From an uncultured Staphylococcaceae bacterium (lineage in GTDB: Bacteria; Bacillota_I; Bacilli_A; RFN20; CAG-826), in NCBI GenBank assembly GCA_964371305.1, contig CAYJLA010000002.1:6236-70235 (forward strand): a stretch of 64,000 nucleotides of DNA, given 5' to 3'. Under the pieces are notes generated by a model. It did no database searches. It saw only the letters and a program-made list of their open reading frames with translations, and was not told the origin of the DNA. Positions 17,588-63,615 of the stretch are shown here, in pieces (the stretch's first letter is position 1; each line of letters opens with the position of its first letter). The position numbers were made by a program, and so were the translations under genes.

Positions 17588-18541
17588 ATGAAAGAAAACA
17601 CGATATTATTTGGATTAAATGCGAATAAGACTATAACTAAAGAAGTGTCCAATATTTTAGGCATGGAACTTGGAAAAGTTGATATTTTAAGATTCAATGA
17701 CGGTGAAATTATAACTAAAATTATTAGTCCAGTCAGAAAAAAAGATGTATTTGTGATTCAATCAACATCTGCCCCAGCAAATGATCATATAATTGAGTTA
17801 TTATTATTTATCGATGCTTTAAAAAGAGCTGATGCACACACTGTAAGTGTTATAATCCCATATTTTGGTTACTCAAGGCAAGATAGAATTGCCTCTCCAG
17901 GCGAACCTATATCTGCAAAGATGATAGCGAATATGCTTACTAGCGCTGGTATTGATAGAGTCGTTTCAATAGATTTACATACATCTCAAATTCAAGGCTT
18001 TTTCTCATGTCCTGTTAACGATTTGTCTGCGATTCCATTATTTGCTCAATATCTTAGTAAATTTTTAGAGAATAATAGTGTTAAATTAAGCGATGTAGCT
18101 GTTGTTTCGCCAGATCACGGTTCAATAAATAGAGCTAGAGATTTAGCAACTTTATTGCCTGAATCGCAATTAGTAATTGTAGACAAAAGAAGACCTAAAC
18201 CTAATGAAGTTGAAATTACTAAGTTAGTCGGAAATGTAAAGGATAAAGTTTGTATTATAATTGACGATATTGTTGATACTGCTCAAACTTCTATCAATTC
18301 AGCAAGAGAATTAAAGAATCATGGTGCTAAAATCGTTATACTTGCTGCGACACATGCTGTTTTTGATAATAAATCTTTAAACGATATATTTAGTAGTGAC
18401 ATTTCTACGCTGGTCGTTACAAACACAATAGAAAAGCAAATTGATTCAAGAGTAATATATTTATCTGTTTCCGAAATGATTGCTGATGTAGTTAGTAAAA
18501 TTATGAATAATCATATAATTGATGATTATAGCGTCAAATAG
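17588..18541 (+). CDS. prs: ribose-phosphate pyrophosphokinase (PRPP synthetase)
   Basis: Full-length Prs pattern incl. PRPP-binding loop; 317 aa. Confidence 0.9.
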   Translation: MKENTILFGLNANKTITKEVSNILGMELGKVDILRFNDGEIITKIISPVRKKDVFVIQSTSAPANDHIIELLLFIDALKRADAHTVSVIIPYFGYSRQDRIASPGEPISAKMIANMLTSAGIDRVVSIDLHTSQIQGFFSCPVNDLSAIPLFAQYLSKFLENNSVKLSDVAVVSPDHGSINRARDLATLLPESQLVIVDKRRPKPNEVEITKLVGNVKDKVCIIIDDIVDTAQTSINSARELKNHGAKIVILAATHAVFDNKSLNDIFSSDISTLVVTNTIEKQIDSRVIYLSVSEMIADVVSKIMNNHIIDDYSVK

Positions 18542-18645
18542 TATGAAGAAATCTATGCTTACAAAAAAAGAAGTAATAATATTTGCAATATGTCTTGTAT
18601 TATTGATAGTATTGAGTGTTATGAGTTTTGTCATAACATTCTAAA

Positions 18646-18685
18646 CTGTGTTGCCCTTGCCTCACCACAGTAAAAAAACAAGGAG
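18646..18685 (+). promoter_or_regulatory. candidate preQ1-I riboswitch (H-type pseudoknot) controlling queT translation
   Basis: P1 CUGUG(18646-50)/CACAG(18666-70), 15-nt loop containing CCUUG that can pair with CAAGG of the A-rich tail UAAAAAAACAAGGAG which carries the SD; closely resembles T. tengcongensis preQ1 aptamer tail ...AACAAAACAAGG. Confidence 0.55.
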
Positions 18686-18691
18686 AATAAA

Positions 18692-19198
18692 ATGAATAAT
18701 AGAGATTTTGTTCGCAATGTCGTTACAAATGGCGTTATTGCGGCGTTGTATTTTACAATTACAGCACTTACAGTAGGTATATCCTTTTTAGGAATTCAGT
18801 TTAGATTTGCTGAAATACTGGTACTGTTGTGCTTTTTTAATAAAAAATATATTGTAGGAATAACAATTGGCACAATGCTCGCTAATACTCTTTCACCAAT
18901 CACCATGTACTGGGATATGTTATTTGGAACACTTGCAACTGTGATTTCATGCTTGTGCATCATGTATTCTAAACAATTGCTTGTTGCGCTAATTTTCCCA
19001 ATAGTATTTAATGCCTTTATAGTCGGTGCTGAATTATACTACATTATGCAGTTGCCATTCTGGATTAATGTTGGTTATGTAGCTCTTGGTCAAACAGTTG
19101 TACTTGCGATCGGATATATTGTATATATGACAACTATGAAACAGCCATACTTCCAAAAAACTATTGGCGCTGACCAAAATTTAGAATTCAAATTTTAA
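18692..19198 (+). CDS. queT: QueT family queuosine-precursor transporter (putative)
   Basis: 168 aa, 5-6 TM small membrane protein immediately downstream of preQ1-like element; same locus as tgt/queA/queH. Confidence 0.55.
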   Translation: MNNRDFVRNVVTNGVIAALYFTITALTVGISFLGIQFRFAEILVLLCFFNKKYIVGITIGTMLANTLSPITMYWDMLFGTLATVISCLCIMYSKQLLVALIFPIVFNAFIVGAELYYIMQLPFWINVGYVALGQTVVLAIGYIVYMTTMKQPYFQKTIGADQNLEFKF

Positions 19199-19289
19199 TG
19201 TAAATATTTTTATATAACTAATTGCTCTTTTTTCTTTAAACGTGATAATTACGAGATTATTTCTTGATTAATAAGTTTTTATCTTTTTA

Positions 19290-19336
19290 CAAATATGTGC
19301 AATGTATTTGCAATGCACATATTTGTAAAGTATAAT
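19290..19336 (+). promoter_or_regulatory. sigma-A promoter (TTGCAA-17-TATAAT) embedded in a perfect 12-bp inverted repeat operator CAAATATGTGCA-N12-TGCACATATTTG
   Basis: -35 19308-19313, -10 19331-19336; IR arms 19290-19301 and 19314-19325; directly upstream of antitoxin gene. Confidence 0.6.
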
Positions 19337-19353
19337 GAAAATAGGTGAAATTT

Positions 19354-19608
19354 ATGAAAACAAAAAATATAACATTAAGAATTGATGAAGACATAAAAGA
19401 AAAGGCTGATGCACTTTTTAAAGAACTTGGTATGAGTATTAATACAGCATTTAACCTATTCTTAAAACAAAGTATAAGAAACCAAGCATTTCCTTTTCCA
19501 ATAACTAAGAAGGCGCAAGAAATCGCTATGATAGAAAATGATGATACAGAACTTGATTTGACCGAAACATTCAAATCACTTCAAGCGATGAAGAAAAAAA
19601 GTAAATAG
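19354..19608 (+). CDS. RelB/DinJ family antitoxin (ribbon-helix-helix)
   Basis: NITLRIDEDIKEKADALFKELGMSINTAFNLFLKQ classic DinJ/RelB N-terminus; AGGTGA RBS 5 nt before ATG 19354 (ORF-track start 19345 is GTG within RBS). Confidence 0.7.
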   Translation: MKTKNITLRIDEDIKEKADALFKELGMSINTAFNLFLKQSIRNQAFPFPITKKAQEIAMIENDDTELDLTETFKSLQAMKKKSK

Positions 19609-19627
19609 TTATGTTATAATAAAATAA

Positions 19628-20035
19628 ATGAAGACATATATTATAACAGCAAGCTTAATAGTGTTCTCGTGTGTTCTTGTCGCAGCATATTCAATTTTTA
19701 ATGTCATTTTTCCTTATTGCGAATCATTTTCTTCACCAAATGTCAGCGAAATTACAAATTACTCGATAGTGTATAGGCATGATAATCAAGAGGAAAAAGT
19801 TGAAGCAGAGATAGATTTGCTACTTGAATTTTTTGAAAAGTCAAAACCGACACGCAAAACAAGCTATAATGATTACCCAAACACTAATTCTTATTATGAA
19901 GTTAAAATTAATTTATCAACGAATATATATACATATTTTATTTATCAAAGTTACTTTAGTGTACTTTTAGAAAAACCTTATTATGGTGTATTTAGTATTT
20001 CGCGAGACGTTCTCGAACTATTAAAGCATCCCTAA
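19628..20035 (+). CDS. hypothetical membrane-anchored/secreted small protein
   Basis: 135 aa, N-terminal hydrophobic segment; no toxin-like features; no SD. Confidence 0.4.
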   Translation: MKTYIITASLIVFSCVLVAAYSIFNVIFPYCESFSSPNVSEITNYSIVYRHDNQEEKVEAEIDLLLEFFEKSKPTRKTSYNDYPNTNSYYEVKINLSTNIYTYFIYQSYFSVLLEKPYYGVFSISRDVLELLKHP

Positions 20036-20052
20036 TATTTACATAAGTATAA

Positions 20053-21218
<1,166 letters not shown>

Positions 21219-21219
<1 letters not shown>

Positions 21220-22244
21220 TGGACATTTCTTTATTTGATTTTAATCTGCCAGAAGAATTAATATCCCAAAACCCTTCTATTAAAAGAGATGAATCTAAAT
21301 TACTCATCTGCAATAAGAAAGAACAAACCTTGGAAGATAAGCGGTTTTTTAATATTATTGATTATTTAAAAAAAGGCGACATACTAGTCAGGAATAACAC
21401 AAAAGTTTTGCCTGTAAGACTTTATGGAGTGAAAAAGATTACTAATGCAAAAGTAGAAGTAGTTTTATTAAAAAACATTAAAGATGATATTTGGGAATGT
21501 TTAGTTGGTAATGCCAAAGTTGTAAAAGTAGGGGTAGAAATCTCTTTTGGTAATGATGACTTAGTGGCAAAATGTATCGAAACAAAAGACGAAGGAATAA
21601 GAATATTAGATTTTTCTTATAACGGTATATTCGTTGAAATATTAGATAAAATTGGAAATATGCCATTACCGCCTTATATAAAAGAGCAACTAGTAAGTAA
21701 TGACCGCTACCAGACTATTTATGCAAAGCATATAGGAAGTTCTGCTGCACCAACAGCTGGATTTCATTTTACTGAAGAATTAGTTAGACAACTTGAATTA
21801 ATGGGTGTAGAGATTCTGGATATAACATTACATATAGGATTAGGCACTTTTAGACCGGTAAAAGTAAATAATACAGATGATCATATTATGCATGAAGAAG
21901 AATTTGAAATGTCAGCGGAAGTAGCAACAAAACTTAACGTGGCAAAAAGCGAAGGAAGAAGAATTATTGCTGTAGGAACAACAAGTGTTAGAACCTTAGA
22001 AGCTATATATTCTAAATATGGCACTTTTATAGAAGCCAAAGAGTCAACAAGTATTTTTATCTTCCCTGGTTATACATTTAAATGCGTTGATGCCATCATT
22101 ACTAACTTTCATCTTCCAAAGTCCACACTCATTATGTTAGTTTCAGCTTTTTTAGGAAGAGAATTTGCTTTAAAAGCATATGAACATGCAATCGAGAATA
22201 AATATAAGTTTTTTTCGTTTGGAGATAGTTCGTTTTTGTATTAA
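21219..22244 (+). CDS. queA: S-adenosylmethionine:tRNA ribosyltransferase-isomerase
   Basis: MDISLFDFNLPEELISQNP N-terminus and full-length QueA pattern; start overlaps tgt stop. Confidence 0.9.
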
Positions 22245-22246
22245 TT

Positions 22247-22879
22247 ATGGAAGAAAAAATAAATTATCATAAGCAAATGCTTAAACAATTAGAAGCAATA
22301 GGGAATAGTAAACCAACAATTTTATTACATGCTTGTTGTGGTCCGTGTGGAGCATATCCAATTGTCTTATTGTCGATGTATTTTAAAGTTACAGTATATT
22401 ACAATAGTGAAAATGTGTATCCAATCGACGAATACAATAAACGCTTTTATGCACTAGAATCATTAATAAATCAATTAAATGAAGAAGGCAATGATGTTAA
22501 ACTAGTGAAAAAAGTTACATACATGTATGAAGAATATGAAAAACACTTAGATTTAGTAAATGATCACAGAGAAGGTGGTAGTAGATGTAAGTTTTGCTAT
22601 AAAAAAAGAATGGAAGAAGGGTTTCATTATGCAAGAGAGCATAATTTTGATTACTATACGACTGTAATGACCTCTTCTAGGCAGAAATCTTCTCAAGTAA
22701 TGAATGAGATAGGAAACATACTTAAAGTCCGTTATAAAGGTGTTAATTACCTTAATAGTGATTTTAAGAAAGATGATGGAATCATAAAAGGAAACGAAAT
22801 AGTTTCTAGATGTAACATATACAGACAAAATTACTGTGGTTGTAGATATTCATTACAAGATAGAAAAAACATAAACTAA
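22247..22879 (+). CDS. queH: epoxyqueuosine reductase QueH (DUF208)
   Basis: LLHACCGPC motif, 210 aa, additional Cys residues for Fe-S; adjacent to queA. Confidence 0.8.
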   Translation: MEEKINYHKQMLKQLEAIGNSKPTILLHACCGPCGAYPIVLLSMYFKVTVYYNSENVYPIDEYNKRFYALESLINQLNEEGNDVKLVKKVTYMYEEYEKHLDLVNDHREGGSRCKFCYKKRMEEGFHYAREHNFDYYTTVMTSSRQKSSQVMNEIGNILKVRYKGVNYLNSDFKKDDGIIKGNEIVSRCNIYRQNYCGCRYSLQDRKNIN

Positions 22880-56781: not shown

Positions 56782-56903
56782 TATGTCGTCACGGAGAAGT
56801 GCGAGGTTGCTGATACACCCACAGGCGTTGTCATGAAGGGGGATCAGGGAATTCACATGGAGTGATACATGCCGCCTGAATAATGAAACAAGGAGGAAAT
56901 TTC
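56782..56903 (+). promoter_or_regulatory. GC-rich structured 5' leader of S10 operon (candidate ribosomal-protein autoregulatory leader)
   Basis: local GC far above genome background; CAGGCG...CGCCTG and CAC-GGAGAAG-GTG stems. Confidence 0.4.
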
Positions 56904-57215
56904 ATGGCTAAAGTTAGGATAATTAGAATTCGCTTAAAAGCTTACGAACACAAAGTATTAGATACAAGTGTTGTTAAGATCTTACAAGCAGCGAAATCTA
57001 CTGGCGCTGGTGTTGTCGGGCCAATTCCGCTACCTACGGAAAAACAAGTGTATACAATTCTTAGAGGTGTACATAAACACAAAGATTCACGTGAGCAATT
57101 CGAAATTCGTACTCACAAACGCTTAATCGATATTACAAATCCAACTAAGGAAACAATCGAAACCTTAAAGAAATTGGATTTACCAAGCGGTGTTGATATC
57201 GATATCAAATTATAG
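56904..57215 (+). CDS. rpsJ: 30S ribosomal protein S10
   Basis: [16 protein letters not shown]...; GGAGG RBS 8 nt before ATG 56904 (ORF-track start 56883 is upstream of RBS). Confidence 0.93.
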
Positions 57216-57225
57216 GAGGTAAAAC

Positions 57226-57933
57226 ATGAAAGCTATTATTGGAAGAAAAGTTGGCATGACCCAAGTATTCGCAGCAGATGGTTCTCAGTACGCAGTTAGT
57301 GTTATAGAAGTTTTACCAAATGTTGTCTCTCAAGTCAAAACACTTGAAAAAGACGGATATGAAGCGGTTCAAATTGGTTACGAAGTTAAAAAAGAATCAA
57401 GAGCGAACAAAGCTGAAAAAGGTCGCGTCGCAAAATCAGGCTTAGCTGTTGCAAAACACTATGTCGAATTAAAAGGTGATGAACTTAAAACTCTTAATGT
57501 TGGCGACACAATTGATGCAAGCATATTTGCAGCAGGAGATGTTGTTGATGTAATCGGAACTTCAAAAGGTAAAGGATTTACTGGCGTTATCAAAAGATAC
57601 GGTCACAAAATCGGTCCTAAAGCACACGGTTCCGGATATCATAGAGGTATTGGTTCGTTCGCAAACAACGGTCGTTGTAATAACCGTGTCTTACCAGGCA
57701 AGAAAATGCCAGGTCATCACGGACACCAAAGAAGTACAATTCTTAACTTATTAGTAGTAGAAGCAAACGCTGCTGAAAACTATATCTTAGTAAGAGGTGG
57801 CATTCCAGGACCTAAAAAAGGACTTATTCAAATTAGAAGCGCTGTAAAAGTTCAACGCAAAACAAAAGAAGTCGTTAAAGAATTAGTAAACACTGCTCCA
57901 GTAGTTGAGCAAGTAGAAGTGAAAGGAGAATAA
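57226..57933 (+). CDS. rplC: 50S ribosomal protein L3
   Basis: GRKVGMTQVF... conserved L3. Confidence 0.95.
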   Translation: MKAIIGRKVGMTQVFAADGSQYAVSVIEVLPNVVSQVKTLEKDGYEAVQIGYEVKKESRANKAEKGRVAKSGLAVAKHYVELKGDELKTLNVGDTIDASIFAAGDVVDVIGTSKGKGFTGVIKRYGHKIGPKAHGSGYHRGIGSFANNGRCNNRVLPGKKMPGHHGHQRSTILNLLVVEANAAENYILVRGGIPGPKKGLIQIRSAVKVQRKTKEVVKELVNTAPVVEQVEVKGE

Positions 57934-57935
57934 TC

Positions 57936-58571
57936 ATGGCCGAAAAGAAATTAAAAGTAGCAGTACTTAATATGAACGGCGAAGAAGTATCATCTCTTGC
58001 ACTTAATAAAGATGTATTCGGTATTGAAGTTAACAAACAAGTTATGTTCGATGCAGTTAAGGTATATCTTGCAAATCGTCGTCAAGCTACAGCAAAAGTA
58101 AAAAATCGTAGCGAAGTTTCTGGTGGTGGTAAAAAACCTTGGAGACAAAAAGGAACTGGTAGAGCACGTGCTGGTTCAACAAGAAGCCCAATTTGGGTTG
58201 GTGGTGGTAGATCATTCGGACCACGTGGTAACCAAAATTACAAAATTTCTCAAAACAAGAAAGAACATAGACTCGCTCTTAAATCAGCTCTTACATTAAA
58301 AGCTGTGGCAGGGTTAGTTGTTGTTGATAGATTGGAAATCGCAGAACCAAAAACTAAATTGGTAGCAAGTGTGTTAAGTAATATCAAAGTTACTTCAAAA
58401 GCGCTTGTTGTTACAGATGCAAATAATGCAAACTTAGCATTAGGCATCCGTAATATTAATAAAGTTAAACTCGTAAATAGTAATAATGTTTCTGTTTATG
58501 ATTTATTAAATGCTAAACAAGTCGTATTCGATTTAGAAGCAATTAAAAAAGTTATGGAGGTACTTGGATAA
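57936..58571 (+). CDS. rplD: 50S ribosomal protein L4
   Basis: conserved L4 pattern, operon order. Confidence 0.95.
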   Translation: MAEKKLKVAVLNMNGEEVSSLALNKDVFGIEVNKQVMFDAVKVYLANRRQATAKVKNRSEVSGGGKKPWRQKGTGRARAGSTRSPIWVGGGRSFGPRGNQNYKISQNKKEHRLALKSALTLKAVAGLVVVDRLEIAEPKTKLVASVLSNIKVTSKALVVTDANNANLALGIRNINKVKLVNSNNVSVYDLLNAKQVVFDLEAIKKVMEVLG

Positions 58572-58906
58572 TGGCTAAAAAAGAAAAAGTAGCAACCGGT
58601 TCATTCGGTAAGCCAACAATTAAAGATTTCGAAGTTATTAAAAAACCTCGTATAACTGAAAAATCTATGGAACTTATGCAAAACTTAAACAAAGTAACTG
58701 TTGAAGTTATGGATACAGCAAACAAAACTGAAATTAAGTTAGCGTTCCAAAGAATATTTGGTGTAAAAGTTGAAGATGTTAGAGTTGTTAACACTCTTGC
58801 AAAAGCAACAAGAAGGGGAGGACGTTATAATGGTCGTATCCCTGGATTTAAAAAGGCAATTGTTACAGTCGCTGAAGGACAAGCAATTGACCTATTTAAA
58901 GAGTAG
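58571..58906 (+). CDS. rplW: 50S ribosomal protein L23 (with ~16-aa N-terminal extension)
   Basis: KKPRITEKS...; TAATG overlap with rplD. Confidence 0.9.
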   Translation: MAKKEKVATGSFGKPTIKDFEVIKKPRITEKSMELMQNLNKVTVEVMDTANKTEIKLAFQRIFGVKVEDVRVVNTLAKATRRGGRYNGRIPGFKKAIVTVAEGQAIDLFKE

Positions 58907-58940
58907 TAAATGCTCTACTTATTATATATAGGAGAAAAAT

Positions 58941-59774
58941 ATGGCAATTAGAACTTACAAACCTACGACACCAAGTCGTAGAAACATGACTAATGCGACA
59001 TTTGAAGAAATCACCAAATCCACTCCTGAGAAATCTCTTACAGTAAGTCTTAAAAAGACTGGCGGACGTAATAACCGCGGAGTAATTACAACTCGTCACA
59101 TTGGTGGTGGACATAAAAGAAAATATCGTATTATTGACTTTAGAAGAAATAAGGATGGTATCATCGGTAAAGTACAAGCTATCGAGTATGATCCAAACAG
59201 AAACGCATACATTGCACTCATTGCTTATGCTGATGGTGAAAAAAGATATATTATCGCACCTGAAGGATTAGTAGTTGGTAATAAAATCATTTCTGGTGAG
59301 ACAGTAGATGTTCGTGTAGGTAACGCAATGTTACTTAAAAACATCCCAGAAGGTAGCGTTGTTCACAACTTAGAACTTACACCACTTAAAGGCGCTCAAC
59401 TTTGTAGAGCTGCTGGTACAAGTGCTCAAATCTTGGGTCACGAAGGAAAATACACAATCGTTCGTTTGGCTTCTGGTGAAGTAAGAAAGATTCTTGGAGA
59501 ATGTAGAGCAACTATTGGTAGAGTCGGTAATGCTGACTTCGCACTTATCAATAAAGGTAAGGCTGGTAAAACACGTTGGTTAGGTACAAGACCTACAGTT
59601 CGTGGTTCTGTTATGAACCCTAACGATCACCCTCATGGTGGTGGTGAAGGTAAATCACCAATCGGGCGTGATGCACCACGTACACCTTGGGGCAAAAGAG
59701 CTCTTGGTGTAAAAACAAGAAAAACAAAGAAAGCGTCATCTAAATTAATTATTAGACGTCGCGGCAAGAAATAA
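58941..59774 (+). CDS. rplB: 50S ribosomal protein L2
   Basis: conserved L2 incl. GGGEGK and [12 protein letters not shown]. Confidence 0.95.
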
Positions 59775-59793
59775 GGCAAAGGAGGAATAAAAT

Positions 59794-60090
59794 ATGGGAC
59801 GTAGTTTGAAAAAAGGACCATTCGTTGATGAACATTTAATGAAAAAGGTCGAAGCGTTAAACGCAAGCGGTCGCAAAGAAGTCATTAAAACTTGGTCAAG
59901 AAGAAGTACAATATTTCCACAATTCGTGGAACATACCTTTGCAGTTTACAACGGACGTGAACATATCACAGTTTATGTAACTGAAGATATGGTTGGACAC
60001 AAGTTAGGAGAATTCTCTCCAACTCGTACATATCACGGACACACAGGGCATACAGCTGAAGATAAAGCAGCTCACGCCTCAAAAAGATAG
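59794..60090 (+). CDS. rpsS: 30S ribosomal protein S19
   Basis: [11 protein letters not shown]... Confidence 0.95.
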
Positions 60091-60100
60091 GAGGTAAGTT

Positions 60101-60514
60101 ATGGCAACTAAAAAAGAAACAGCAACTAAAAAAGTAGCTAAAAAAGAAAAAGTTGAAGAAGTAGCCACAAAACCAATGGTTACTGAAGCAAGTGCAACTG
60201 CTTATGACTTACGTGTTACTCCTCGTAAAGCAAGATTAGTAATTGATTTAGTAAGAGGTAAAGACGTTAGCGTTGCACTCGGCATTCTTGCAAATACTAA
60301 TAAAGCAGCATCACCATTAGTCGCAAAGATCATTAAATCAGCTTGCGCTAATGCAGTTAATAACTTCGGTATGGATGCAAACAGTTTATATGTTGCAACT
60401 ATCTATGCTAATGAAGGTATTAGAATGAAAAGATATCTCCCACGTGCTAAAGGTTCAGCATCTGGGTTAGTAAAAAGAAACAGCCACATCACAGTAGTGG
60501 TAAAAGGAAGGTAG
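60101..60514 (+). CDS. rplV: 50S ribosomal protein L22 (Lys-rich ~28-aa N-terminal extension)
   Basis: core ...RVTPRKARLVIDLVRGK...; extension TKKETATKKVAKKEKVEEV. Confidence 0.9.
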   Translation: MATKKETATKKVAKKEKVEEVATKPMVTEASATAYDLRVTPRKARLVIDLVRGKDVSVALGILANTNKAASPLVAKIIKSACANAVNNFGMDANSLYVATIYANEGIRMKRYLPRAKGSASGLVKRNSHITVVVKGR

Positions 60515-60518
60515 TAAT

Positions 60519-61196
60519 ATGGGTCAAAAAGTAAGTCCAATAGGTTTGCGTGTAGGTGTTACACGTGGATGGAATTCAAGATGGTTTGCTGAAGGAAAAG
60601 ACTTCGCTACATTCTTAGGAGAAGACATTAAAATTCGTAGATTCCTTGTTAAGAGCCTTAAAGATGCGATGTTATCACATGTTGATATTGAACGCGTTAA
60701 AACAGATAAGGGTGTTGAAGCTAATGTCATTTGTCACGTAGCTCGTCCAGGTGTTGTAATCGGACAAGATGGTGCAAACATTAATAAAATTAAAAAACAG
60801 TTATCAAAACTCGTCACTGATGGAAACGTTAGAATGACAGTTGTTGATGTAACTAATCCAGATTTGGATGCTCAACTTGTAGCATATTGGATTGCACACG
60901 AACTTGAAAATCGTGCTAGCTTCCGTACAGTACAAAAGAAAGCTATTCAAAGAGTTAGAAAAGCTGGAGCAAAAGGTTGTAGAACAATCGTATCAGGCCG
61001 TTTAGGTGGTGCTGACATTGCTCGTGGCGAAGGATATAAAGAAGGTATTATACCTCTACATACATTAAGAAGTAACATTGATTATGCTACTGCTGAAGCT
61101 CATACAACATATGGTAGACTTGGCGTCAAAGTATGGATTTGTTTGGGCGATGTTAAAGATGAAAAGGTAGAAGCCAAGAAGGGAGAGCGTGAATAA
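60519..61196 (+). CDS. rpsC: 30S ribosomal protein S3
   Basis: [13 protein letters not shown]... Confidence 0.95.
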
Positions 61197-61609
61197 TGTT
61201 ACAACCAAAAAGAGTTAAGTATCGTAGACCTCATGGTATTAAATATGAAGGTAAAGCAAAAGGCGGTACTGAAATTAACTTTGGCGATTGCGCATTAGTT
61301 GCTTTAGAAGGTGATTGGATCACAGCTCGTCAAATTGAATCTGCTCGTAAGGTGTTAAGTAGAGCTACAAACCGTGCTGGTCAAGTATGGATTCGTATCT
61401 TCCCACATCTTGCAAAAACAAAAAAACCTGCTGAAGTTCGTATGGGTAGCGGTAAAGGTTCTCCAGAAGAATGGGTATCAGTAGTTAAAACAGGCCGTAT
61501 CTTATTTGAAATCGGTGGTGTTAACAAGGAAATTGCATGCGAAGCGCTTAGGCTTGCAGCATACAAACTTCCTATTAAATGTAAAGTAATCACAAAGGAG
61601 GTTAAATAA
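61196..61609 (+). CDS. rplP: 50S ribosomal protein L16
   Basis: [13 protein letters not shown]... Confidence 0.95.
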
Positions 61610-61611
61610 CT

Positions 61612-61812
61612 ATGATGAAGGTAGCTGAAGTAAGAGAATTCTCAACTGAAGAATTAAACGAAAAACTTTACTTCTTAAAAGAAGAGTTATTCAATCTTCG
61701 TCGTAAAAAAGCTGTTGGACAGCTTGAACGTGGTGAAGAAATTAGAAGAGTTCGTAAGGAAATTGCTAAAGTATTAACAGTTATCCGTGAACGCGAACTT
61801 GGAATCAAATAA
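61612..61812 (+). CDS. rpmC: 50S ribosomal protein L29
   Basis: 66 aa, conserved L29 pattern. Confidence 0.9.
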
Positions 61813-61826
61813 GGAGGATGATCAAG

Positions 61827-62111
61827 ATGGAACAAAGATTATCACGTACTACATTCCAAGGTGTTGTAGTCAGTAATAAATGCGACAAAACAATCGTCGT
61901 ATTAGTCGAAACTCATAAAAAACATCCTATGTATTCAAAAAGAGTTAAATATGCTAAAAAATATTATGCTCATGATGAAGAAAATAAGGCAAATATTGGT
62001 GATACAGTCACAATTATGGGTTGCCGTAAATTATCAGCCACTAAAAGATTCCGTTTAGTAAGTATTGATAAATTAGCAGTTAGCGATGTAAAAGCAGCTG
62101 CAGCTGAGTAA
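61827..62111 (+). CDS. rpsQ: 30S ribosomal protein S17
   Basis: start set to ATG 61827 (9 nt after AAGGAGG; ORF-track ATG 61818 abuts the SD). Confidence 0.9.
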
Positions 62112-62125
62112 GGAGGTAACAAAGT

Positions 62126-62500
62126 ATGGTTCAAAATGAAACAAATTTAATTGTTGCTGATAACTCAGGAGCAAAAAAAGTTCGTGTCTTCCGTTTATAT
62201 GGCGGAGGTAATCGTAAATCTAGTGGTATTGGAGATATCGTCTTATGTGCAGTTAAAGAAGCAATTCCTAATGCAAAAGTAAAAAAAGGTGATATTGTAA
62301 AAGTTATTATCGTTAGAACAAAGAAACACATTTTACGTGCTGATGGATCAAGTGTTAGGTTTGATGACAATGCTTGTGTCCTTATTAATAATGACGGAGC
62401 ACCAATCGGTACTCGTGTCTTTGGGCCAGTAGCTCGTGAACTTCGTGAAAAAGGTGAAGGATTTATGAAAATTATCTCCTTAGCACCAGAAGTATTATAA
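62126..62500 (+). CDS. rplN: 50S ribosomal protein L14
   Basis: [18 protein letters not shown]... Confidence 0.95.
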
Positions 62501-62512
62501 GGAGAACTAATC

Positions 62513-62821
62513 ATGAAAATTAAACAAGGTGATAAAGTAATCGTTATAGCTGGTAAAGATAAGGGTAAGGAAGGAATTGTTCAAAAAGTCCACCCACATG
62601 TTGAAAAAGTAGTTGTTGAAGGTGTTGCAGTTCGTAAAAGACATAAAAAACCAACACAACAAACTCCTGAAGGTTCAATCGTGGAAATGTATGCACCAAT
62701 TCATGTATCAAATGTTGCAATTATCGATCCAAAAACTAAAAAACCAACTAGAGTCGGTTATAAAGTCGTTAAAGACAAAAAAGTACGCTATGCCAAAAAA
62801 TCAGGCACAGTACTAGATTAA
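62513..62821 (+). CDS. rplX: 50S ribosomal protein L24
   Basis: [21 protein letters not shown]... Confidence 0.95.
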
Positions 62822-62835
62822 GGAGGAGTAAAACA

Positions 62836-63615
62836 ATGGTTGAAGAAATTAAAAAGACTACTGCAAAAAAAGCTCCTGCTAAAAAGGTAGCTGAAAAAGC
62901 AGAAACAACAAAAACTACAGCAGCTAAAAAAACTACAACAACAAAAACTACAGCAACTAAAAAAGCTCCTGCTAAAAAAGTTGAAGAAGTAGTAGCAGAA
63001 GTTAAGGTTGAAAAAGCTCCTGTTAAAAAGGCAGCAGCTAAAAAAGTTTCTAAAGGAAACAAAGTTGCAGCAAGAACAAACAGATTACATGAGAAATATA
63101 AATCAGTAATCGTTCCATTATTAATGGAAAAATATGGTTATAAATCAGTAATGGAAGTTCCTTCACTTAATAAAATCATTATTAATATCGGTGTTGGTGA
63201 AGCGACTCAAAACTCCAAATTACTTGATGATGCAGTTAAAGAATTAGAAGCTATTGCTGGTCAAAAACCAGTAGTTACTAAAGCTAAAAAGTCTATCGCG
63301 ACATTCAAACTTCGTGAAGGGCAAGCAATTGGTTGTAAAGTAACACTTCGTGGCATTAGAATGTATGAGTTCTTCGATAAACTCGTATCAATCCAACTCC
63401 CACGTGTTAGAGACTTCCGTGGCGTTAGCAAATCTGCATTCGATGGACGTGGTAACTATACATTAGGTATCAAAGAACAAGTTATGTTCACTGAAATCGA
63501 TTATGATAAAATCACAAAATTCAGAGGAATGGACATTGTAATCGTTACAACTGCCAAAACCGATGAAGAAGCATTCACACTCTTACAAGAAGCTGGAATG
63601 CCATTTGTAAGATAG
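62836..63615 (+). CDS. rplE: 50S ribosomal protein L5 with ~80-aa Lys/Ala/Thr-rich (histone-H1-like) N-terminal extension
   Basis: core from [28 protein letters not shown]...; no in-frame ATG between 62836 and the core; GGAGG RBS 9 nt upstream of 62836. Confidence 0.85.

Follow-up and report, generated by a model that had tools for sequence, protein, structure and literature searches.

A probable preQ1-I riboswitch of type II-like form in the queT leader of a poorly sampled Bacilli lineage

The queT gene considered here (18692-19198, + strand) lies in a cluster of preQ1-related genes within the window, by which is meant the whole 64-kb stretch of DNA that was analysed. It encodes a protein of 168 aa, the predicted S-component of an ECF-type preQ1 transporter, which matches Pfam family PF06177 with 122.4 bits (E 2.3e-35; cut-off 33.7). 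All of its 310 homologues belong to PF06177 as well, the nearest being 59% identical. Upstream on the same strand is prs (17588-18541), and downstream are tgt (20095-21219), queA (21219-22244) and queH (22247-22879), each recognised by Pfam, so that the cluster of queT, tgt, queA and queH reported in the initial annotation is borne out for all four genes. In the window, queT and tgt are split by a RelB-antitoxin-like gene (19345-19608, +) and a DUF5301 gene (19628-20035, +), both identified with Pfam, together with a promoter-like site at 19308-19336, and tgt, queA and queH are under no direct riboswitch control.

Several side observations concern this stretch and its surroundings. In most relatives, tgt begins approximately 20-40 nt past queT, without the RelB-like/DUF5301 insertion, and no RelE-like toxin partner was seen beside these two genes in the window. 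A 19-nt inverted repeat, TTTACAAATATGTGCAATG / CAATGCACATATTTGTAAA, occupies 19286-19329 with 95% complementarity and a 6-nt gap, and it overlaps the promoter-like sequence TTGCAA-17-TATAAT (19308-19336) just 5' of the RelB-like gene; its role is probably that of an autoregulatory operator or, failing that, of a hairpin that terminates the queT transcript. Elsewhere in the window, the S10/spc ribosomal protein operon starts at 56883-63615 (+), where S10, L5 and others were recognised by Pfam.

Related loci were obtained by an alignment-based scan with one genome per species, which gave 80 loci with QueT relatives, almost all of them MAGs labelled Bacilli, Erysipelotrichaceae/Erysipelotrichales, Coprobacillus or Acholeplasma-like/Acholeplasmatales. 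The gene order (orf196)-prs-queT-tgt-queA-queH is kept among these relatives, and the queT-tgt-queA-queH portion occurs in most of the 80. The tgt gene lies downstream of queT in 68 loci, mostly as its direct neighbour, and prs lies directly upstream in 49. The products of tgt, queA and queH carry out the tRNA insertion and maturation steps that consume imported preQ1. Pfam searches of about 58 ORFs in the window found no QueC, QueD, QueE or QueF, as had been claimed from the sequence, and no GTP cyclohydrolase I (folE); nor was an ECF energising module (ecfA/A'/T) that could serve QueT noticed there. The combination of tgt, queA, queH and queT is known as the 'Ap' preQ1-salvage variant, which is common in gut bacteria (PMC6593275), and QueT has long been predicted to be a preQ1 importer under riboswitch control (PMC5372724). 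The precursor salvage proposed in the initial annotation therefore fits the gene content, a reading whose extent is that of the 64-kb window.

The region between prs and queT holds a further candidate gene, a 33-codon ORF (18543-18644, +) for a single-pass hydrophobic peptide that has no Pfam match. The stop codon of prs is 104 nt upstream of the RNA element described below, and that of the 33-codon ORF ends 1 nt before it. This ORF is a possible upstream cistron, although whether it forms part of the regulatory unit is uncertain. A promoter scan found no dedicated sigma-70 promoter between prs and the element; a candidate picked out by eye, TTGAGT-16-TAACAT, matches at only 8 of 12 positions. 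Moreover, there is no terminator-like site anywhere in 18300-20200, and a transcription-termination mechanism was rejected on this ground.

Between prs and queT, nine related loci also have small ORFs (33-79 aa) whose products combine a charged N-terminus with a single hydrophobic helix. The small-ORF stop falls 1-5 nt before the element in the window and in locus L005 (3826-3948), and no more than about 45 nt from the queT match in eight loci that have no riboswitch (L001, L008, L013, L016, L024, L032, L056 and L057). The recurring ORF may encode a genuine micro-protein, or it may simply result from the AT-richness of the sequence. In addition, an 11-bp hairpin, GAGUGUUAUGA / UCAUAACAUUC, lies at about 18614-18641 (+) in the 3' end of the small ORF of the window, adjoining the aptamer, and is followed by no U-tract.

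As read from the sequence, the queT leader holds an RNA pseudoknot of about 40 bases at 18646-18683 (+). The stem CUGUG/CACAG, the loop with CCUUG and the tail with CAAGG that the initial annotation had described are all present where it placed them. The first helix, P1, is formed by CUGUG (18646-18650) and CACAG (18666-18670), with a possible sixth pair between A18645 and U18671. It encloses a loop of 15 nt, UUGCCCUUGCCUCAC (18651-18665), which can be divided into three parts by alignment and by comparison with published aptamers. The first part, L1, is UUGC (18651-18654), in which the leading UU is invariant in 58 of 58 relatives, as judged from the alignments A2, A3 and A4 described below, while GC is an insertion that varies by lineage, the L1 of relatives being 2-6 nt long. 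The second is the anti-Shine-Dalgarno pentamer CCUUG (18655-18659), which forms the 5' strand of the second helix, P2, and the third is L2, CCUCAC (18660-18665), of which the last two bases are AC. The tail 3' of P1 reads UAAAAAAACAAGGAG and consists of the A-rich L3, UAAAAAAA (18671-18678), followed by the P2 3' strand CAAGG (18679-18683), to which the loop pentamer is an exact complement. The P2 3' strand covers four of the six bases (AAGG) of the Shine-Dalgarno sequence AAGGAG (18680-18685), which is separated from the queT AUG (18692) by a spacer of six bases. All of these features lie on the + strand.

The duplex of loop with tail has a calculated energy of -6.9 kcal/mol, and the hairpin alone has an MFE of -6.2 kcal/mol with z = -0.68, which is not beyond chance when compared with shuffled sequence. 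When a longer leader is folded without pseudoknots, CCUUG can pair with CAAGG without P1.

Searches with Rfam at gathering thresholds gave no match anywhere in the whole window. In E-value mode, RF00522 (PreQ1) ranked at the top of 4227 Rfam families for the segment 18540-18720, with a match at 18641-18687 that scores 18.3 bits (E 0.12) against a gathering score of 39; the alignment spans the full model (positions 1-45), and the loop is passed over as a local end. The larger preQ1 classes, preQ1-II (RF01054) and preQ1-III (RF02680), had no match at E<=10 in the same segment. The gathering score of RF00522 was likewise out of reach for 20 orthologous queT loci, all of which visibly carry the motif, and single relatives scored 15.2 bits (L053) and 24.6 bits (L050). 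A control was provided by the yhhQ leader of E. coli K-12, a type III preQ1-I riboswitch that has been solved by crystallography (PMC10622847). Its aptamer (L081, 14175-14216), recognised by the stem-loop UUGGG-UUCCCUCAC-CCCAA and the linker GGUUAAUC, is not matched by RF00522 at E<=10 (Rfam 15). The model is insensitive to validated parts of the preQ1-I class. A score below threshold, which the initial annotation had named as grounds for refutation, was formally obtained, and it weakens the formal claim of a match to RF00522; in view of the E. coli control, the check was judged invalid here. Since the model misses a validated and crystallised aptamer, the score does not weaken the claim of a preQ1-I riboswitch, nor is failure at the gathering score a ground to reject candidates of this kind.

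The same motif was found immediately 5' of queT in 58 of the 80 related loci, where QueT identity is 38-56%. Its consensus can be written as NNGUG-UU-(0-4 nt)-CCUUG-(3-6 nt)-AAC-CACNN-(A-rich, 5-15 nt)-CAAGGAG. The 44 distinct leaders of these orthologues were used to build a covariance model, R1, in which only P1 is modelled and from which the window was excluded. On both strands of the 64 kb, R1 gave a single significant match, at 18644-18686, with 46.4 bits and an E-value of 1.8e-9; the runner-up scored 13.2 bits. When R1 was run over the window and the 80 loci together (675 kb, both strands), all 59 matches lay directly 5' of queT and none lay away from it. A metagenome scan was made with a sequence pattern for the loop only, and its matches were mostly due to chance: among the matches listed, one of 80 loci passes R1 and the other 79 are chance matches. 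The one R1-positive metagenomic locus, L155, has the order prs-motif-queT. R1 did not match the E. coli yhhQ region.

Two more loop variants of the same riboswitch were observed in sister lineages. One, UUC(U)UCCUCUGAAC, pairs with AGGAGG and occurs in L043, L048, L049, L065, L073, L074 and L080. The other, UUCGUUCCGCAGUAAC, is Tte-like and occurs in L050, L054, L060 and L072; it has CGCAGUAAC in common with the aptamer of T. tengcongensis (Tte), so that the L050 group carries the Tte loop core.

Conservation of the pairing was assessed with three alignments. In the MAFFT (A2) and model-based (A3) alignments, P1 was in register and the 5' strand of P2 was not, because the length of L1 varies. 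A manual, N-padded alignment of 38 distinct sequences, including the window, was therefore used for P2 (A4). Its P2 register was set by a sequence pattern for the loop pentamer, not by complementarity, and it leaves out 12 leaders with other loop variants (UUCUUCCUCUGAAC or the Tte-like UUCGUUCCGCAGUAAC). In A4, P1 and P2 together are paired in 97.4% of cells; sliding the partners by 1-3 columns lowers this to 23-58%. For P1 (A4 columns 3-7 with 25-29), 96.3% of cells are paired, and compensatory changes occur at three of the five pairs, in 41 cells, a level matched by none of 500 shuffles; the pairs that adjoin the loop (U-A and G-C) are invariant. For the P2 helix CCUUG/CAAGG, 98.4% of cells are paired. 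The initial annotation had staked its reading on conservation of this loop/tail pairing in orthologous queT leaders, and it is indeed conserved, with one compensatory pair: U-A is replaced by G-C in L041, L066, L071, L075 and L077, where CCUUG/CAAGG becomes UCUGG or ACUGG/CCAGG. The swap may have happened only once, since its five carriers are probably related to one another, and two other positions of P2 show wobble changes only. Of course, the 3' strand of P2 is also the Shine-Dalgarno sequence, which is constrained regardless of pairing, and the informative part of the helix is the conserved anti-Shine-Dalgarno pentamer in the loop. Outside the helices, the cytosine at the specificity position (C18665) and the first loop U (U18651) are invariant columns in A2 and A4, the A before this cytosine (A18664 in the window) is at least 90% conserved in A4, and the last three A of L3 (AAA before C) are invariant in A4.

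Against these results, the idea of a chance hairpin beside a strong ribosome-binding site in AT-rich DNA can hardly be maintained. It would account for the weak hairpin energy, the sub-threshold Rfam score and the predominance of chance among the loop-only metagenomic matches listed, and yet it leaves no place for an R1 E-value of 1.8e-9 with a gap of 33 bits to the next match, or for the recurrence of the motif at one and the same place in 58 of the 80 loci, given QueT proteins that share just 38-56% identity. It was regarded as refuted by the R1 score, the conservation across loci and the pair counts in A4.

A ligand-independent hairpin or pseudoknot, one that uses its anti-Shine-Dalgarno strand to tune queT translation or its coupling to the upstream cistron, is very improbable, if somewhat less so than a chance hairpin. 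Such a structure could be no more stable than shuffled sequence, as the hairpin is, and could adopt the pseudoknot-free fold in which CCUUG and CAAGG pair without P1; an upstream stop codon within 12 nt of P1 in 31 of 59 loci would also suggest translational coupling. It leaves unexplained, however, the invariant UU and the invariant C adjacent to P1, an A-rich spacer whose length is constrained, and the covariation of P1 beneath an invariant U-A/G-C top. Moreover, the conserved positions are those that make up the ligand pocket of solved preQ1-I aptamers (PMC11625349), and the motif was found only 5' of a gene for a preQ1 transporter.

The element is very probably a preQ1-I riboswitch of type II-like form that represses the translation of queT. 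Several features of the preQ1-I class are present, including a covarying P1 of about 5 bp, an H-type pseudoknot formed by P2, the specificity cytosine and the first-loop U, and to these can be added an A-rich L3 and the location in a queT leader. In solved preQ1-I structures, the A-rich L3 docks in the P1 minor groove (PMC11625349), and the specificity C and the first-loop U have their roles in the ligand pocket (PMC11625349, PMC10622847); by this analogy, C18665 is the predicted ligand-specificity cytosine. The preQ1-I reading of the initial annotation is thereby supported, in that the signature positions are conserved and P2 overlaps the Shine-Dalgarno sequence as would be expected of such a switch.

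Three types of preQ1-I riboswitch have been distinguished (PMC11625349). In type I, UU follows P1, UC precedes its 3' strand and two ligands are bound; type II, to which the riboswitches of B. subtilis (Bsu) and Tte belong, is marked by AC in place of UC and governs queCDEF or queT; and type III joins UU to AC, has a short loop of about 9 nt that is rich in pyrimidines, buries AAGG completely and is nearly restricted to yhhQ of gamma-proteobacteria. Type I, with its two stacked ligands, was rejected, since the window has AC rather than UC as its dinucleotide. With respect to type II, the element has AC at this place, lies in the leader of queT and has relatives of Bacilli type. It also has the UU, AC and AAGG burial of type III, but its loop is 15 nt long, its P1 contains two G-C pairs, and its gene is queT in Bacilli, not gamma-proteobacterial yhhQ. 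The L2 and L3 of Bsu length, together with the Tte-like tail and regulated gene, led to its being filed as type II-like. Compared with Bsu, the extra loop length consists of two more L1 bases and one more P2 pair. In hiding four Shine-Dalgarno bases, P2 comes closer to type III behaviour than to that of Tte, which hides two.

The mixture of traits raises another reading, in which the element would be a distinct preQ1-I subtype that combines type III hallmarks (UU with AC, a P2 strand rich in pyrimidines and complete Watson-Crick burial of AAGG) with a long, type II-like L2 and an enlarged L1. Its stoichiometry, or its preference between preQ0 and preQ1, could then be different. The conservation of both UU and AC and the 5-bp Watson-Crick P2 over C and AAGG speak for it, as these traits define type III, which has been reported almost only upstream of gamma-proteobacterial yhhQ (PMC11625349). 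In the same direction, the E. coli loop UUCCCUCAC has CCUCAC, as in the window, at its 3' end, and RF00522 fails on the whole clade. However, UU, a Watson-Crick P2 and an L2 of 6 nt are likewise present in the type II riboswitch of B. subtilis, and the shortest relatives (L047, L055 and L078, with UU-CCUUG-CCUAAC) are Bsu-like with one P2 pair added. P1 lacks the three G-C pairs that are conserved in type III, and R1 does not match the E. coli aptamer. A distinct subtype of this kind is accordingly considered quite unlikely, and the type II-like assignment is preferred.

Under the preferred type II-like reading, the mechanism may be pictured as follows. P1 (CUGUG/CACAG) would fold as a 5-bp hairpin, and abundant preQ1 would stack on it, forming a Watson-Crick pair with C18665 and a contact with U18651, with the A-rich tail then sitting in the P1 minor groove. 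The tail CAAGG would dock on the loop CCUUG to form P2 in an H-type pseudoknot stabilised by preQ1, and P2 would bury AAGG of AAGGAG, six bases 5' of the AUG, blocking 30S initiation so that less QueT is made. When preQ1 is scarce, P2 would open and queT would be translated. The identity of the ligand, its mode of binding and the OFF direction of this switch would be as in the solved Tte, Bsu and E. coli relatives, from which they are drawn by analogy.

The placement of the element within the operon may have a bearing on this mechanism. Among the 59 motif-bearing related loci, 31, including L018, L021 and L046, have an upstream long ORF whose stop codon lies no more than 12 nt before P1, with a mode of 6 nt, and in most of these 31 the ORF is Prs-sized, at about 300 codons. 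There is even an overlap between stop codon and P1 in L018 and L021. As the aptamer is intercistronic, a terminating ribosome would cover the 5' strand of P1 and unfold it, which hints that upstream translation is coupled to the switch. A bolder proposal is that the clade constitutes a separate preQ1-I subtype of uncultured Bacilli that Rfam misses, operon-internal and with sensing coupled to termination and reinitiation. Its traits may be UU with AC, a loop of 13-16 nt and a 5-bp Watson-Crick anti-Shine-Dalgarno helix, typically placed 5-9 nt past the upstream stop codon, the upstream cistron being prs or a Prs-sized ORF in most of the 31 loci and a small transmembrane ORF in the window and in L005. 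If it were true, each terminating ribosome would unfold P1 and sensing would not proceed via free 30S binding alone; the proposal is nonetheless unlikely, though slightly less so than the distinct subtype weighed above.

The value of the result lies mainly in annotation, and its biology adds nothing unexpected. The preQ1-I class is an already known kind of regulator, and control of queT by preQ1-I type II has already been published (PMC11625349); the instance in the window comes from a poorly sampled group of Bacilli. An importer that is shut off when preQ1 is plentiful, in an auxotroph-type set of queT, tgt, queA and queH, would be a textbook arrangement. At least 58 relatives in uncultured Bacilli of gut, rumen and sediment score well under the RF00522 threshold, and for this reason automatic pipelines leave them, like the element itself, unannotated. 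The tight placement of the aptamer against an upstream stop codon in many loci implies translational control that is internal to the operon.

Among known systems, the preQ1-II (RF01054) and preQ1-III (RF02680) riboswitches share ligand, association with the queT family and Shine-Dalgarno sequestration with what is proposed for the window element. Their folds are much larger, at about 80 and 100 nt with HLout pseudoknots, compared with only some 46 nt between the upstream stop codon and the queT AUG in the window.

The type III riboswitch of E. coli yhhQ (PDB 8FZA) resembles the element in having UU with AC and a pyrimidine-rich loop that ends in CCUCAC, as well as in burying the AAGG Shine-Dalgarno bases by pairing and controlling an importer of a Q precursor, the latter two being predicted functions in the window. 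It differs in its 9-nt loop, its G-C-rich P1 and an L3, GGUUAAUC, that lacks an A-rich 5' end, and in its gamma-proteobacterial host and yhhQ gene; its aptamer is also missed by R1.

Of the type II riboswitches, that of B. subtilis queC has the layout AGAGG-UUCUAGCUACAC-CCUCU-AUAAAAAA-CUAAGG (PMC10639078). It shares UU after P1 and a Watson-Crick P2 with the window, and both have a 6-nt L2 ending in CAC (CUACAC versus CCUCAC; PMC10639078) and an 8-nt, A-rich L3 (AUAAAAAA versus UAAAAAAA). The L1 of the window is 2 nt longer and its P2 1 bp longer. Whereas the Bsu riboswitch acts transcriptionally, through a terminator, on the de novo operon queCDEF, the element of the window has a Shine-Dalgarno overlap in place of a terminator and precedes a transporter gene. 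In general, the loops of characterised type II aptamers are 10-12 nt long, as against 15 nt here.

Finally, the Tte riboswitch (PDB 3Q50) is laid out as CUGGG-UCGCAGUAAC-CCCAG-UUAACAAAA-CAAGG (PMC10639078), and its published construct ends in ...UUAACAAAACAAGG (PMC10639078), which agrees with the resemblance between the tails that had been remarked on in the initial annotation; both tails end in AAAACAAGG. The two differ after P1, where the window has UU and Tte has UC, and in that Tte has a 10-nt loop, a partly non-canonical P2 and two buried Shine-Dalgarno bases, compared with 15 nt, five Watson-Crick pairs and four bases in the window. Both have a 5-bp P1 that starts with CUG and closes with CAG, with AC just ahead of its 3' strand; in both, the Shine-Dalgarno sequence falls within the 3' strand of P2 and the gene belongs to the queT family, and the translational OFF logic of Tte is presumably that of the window as well.
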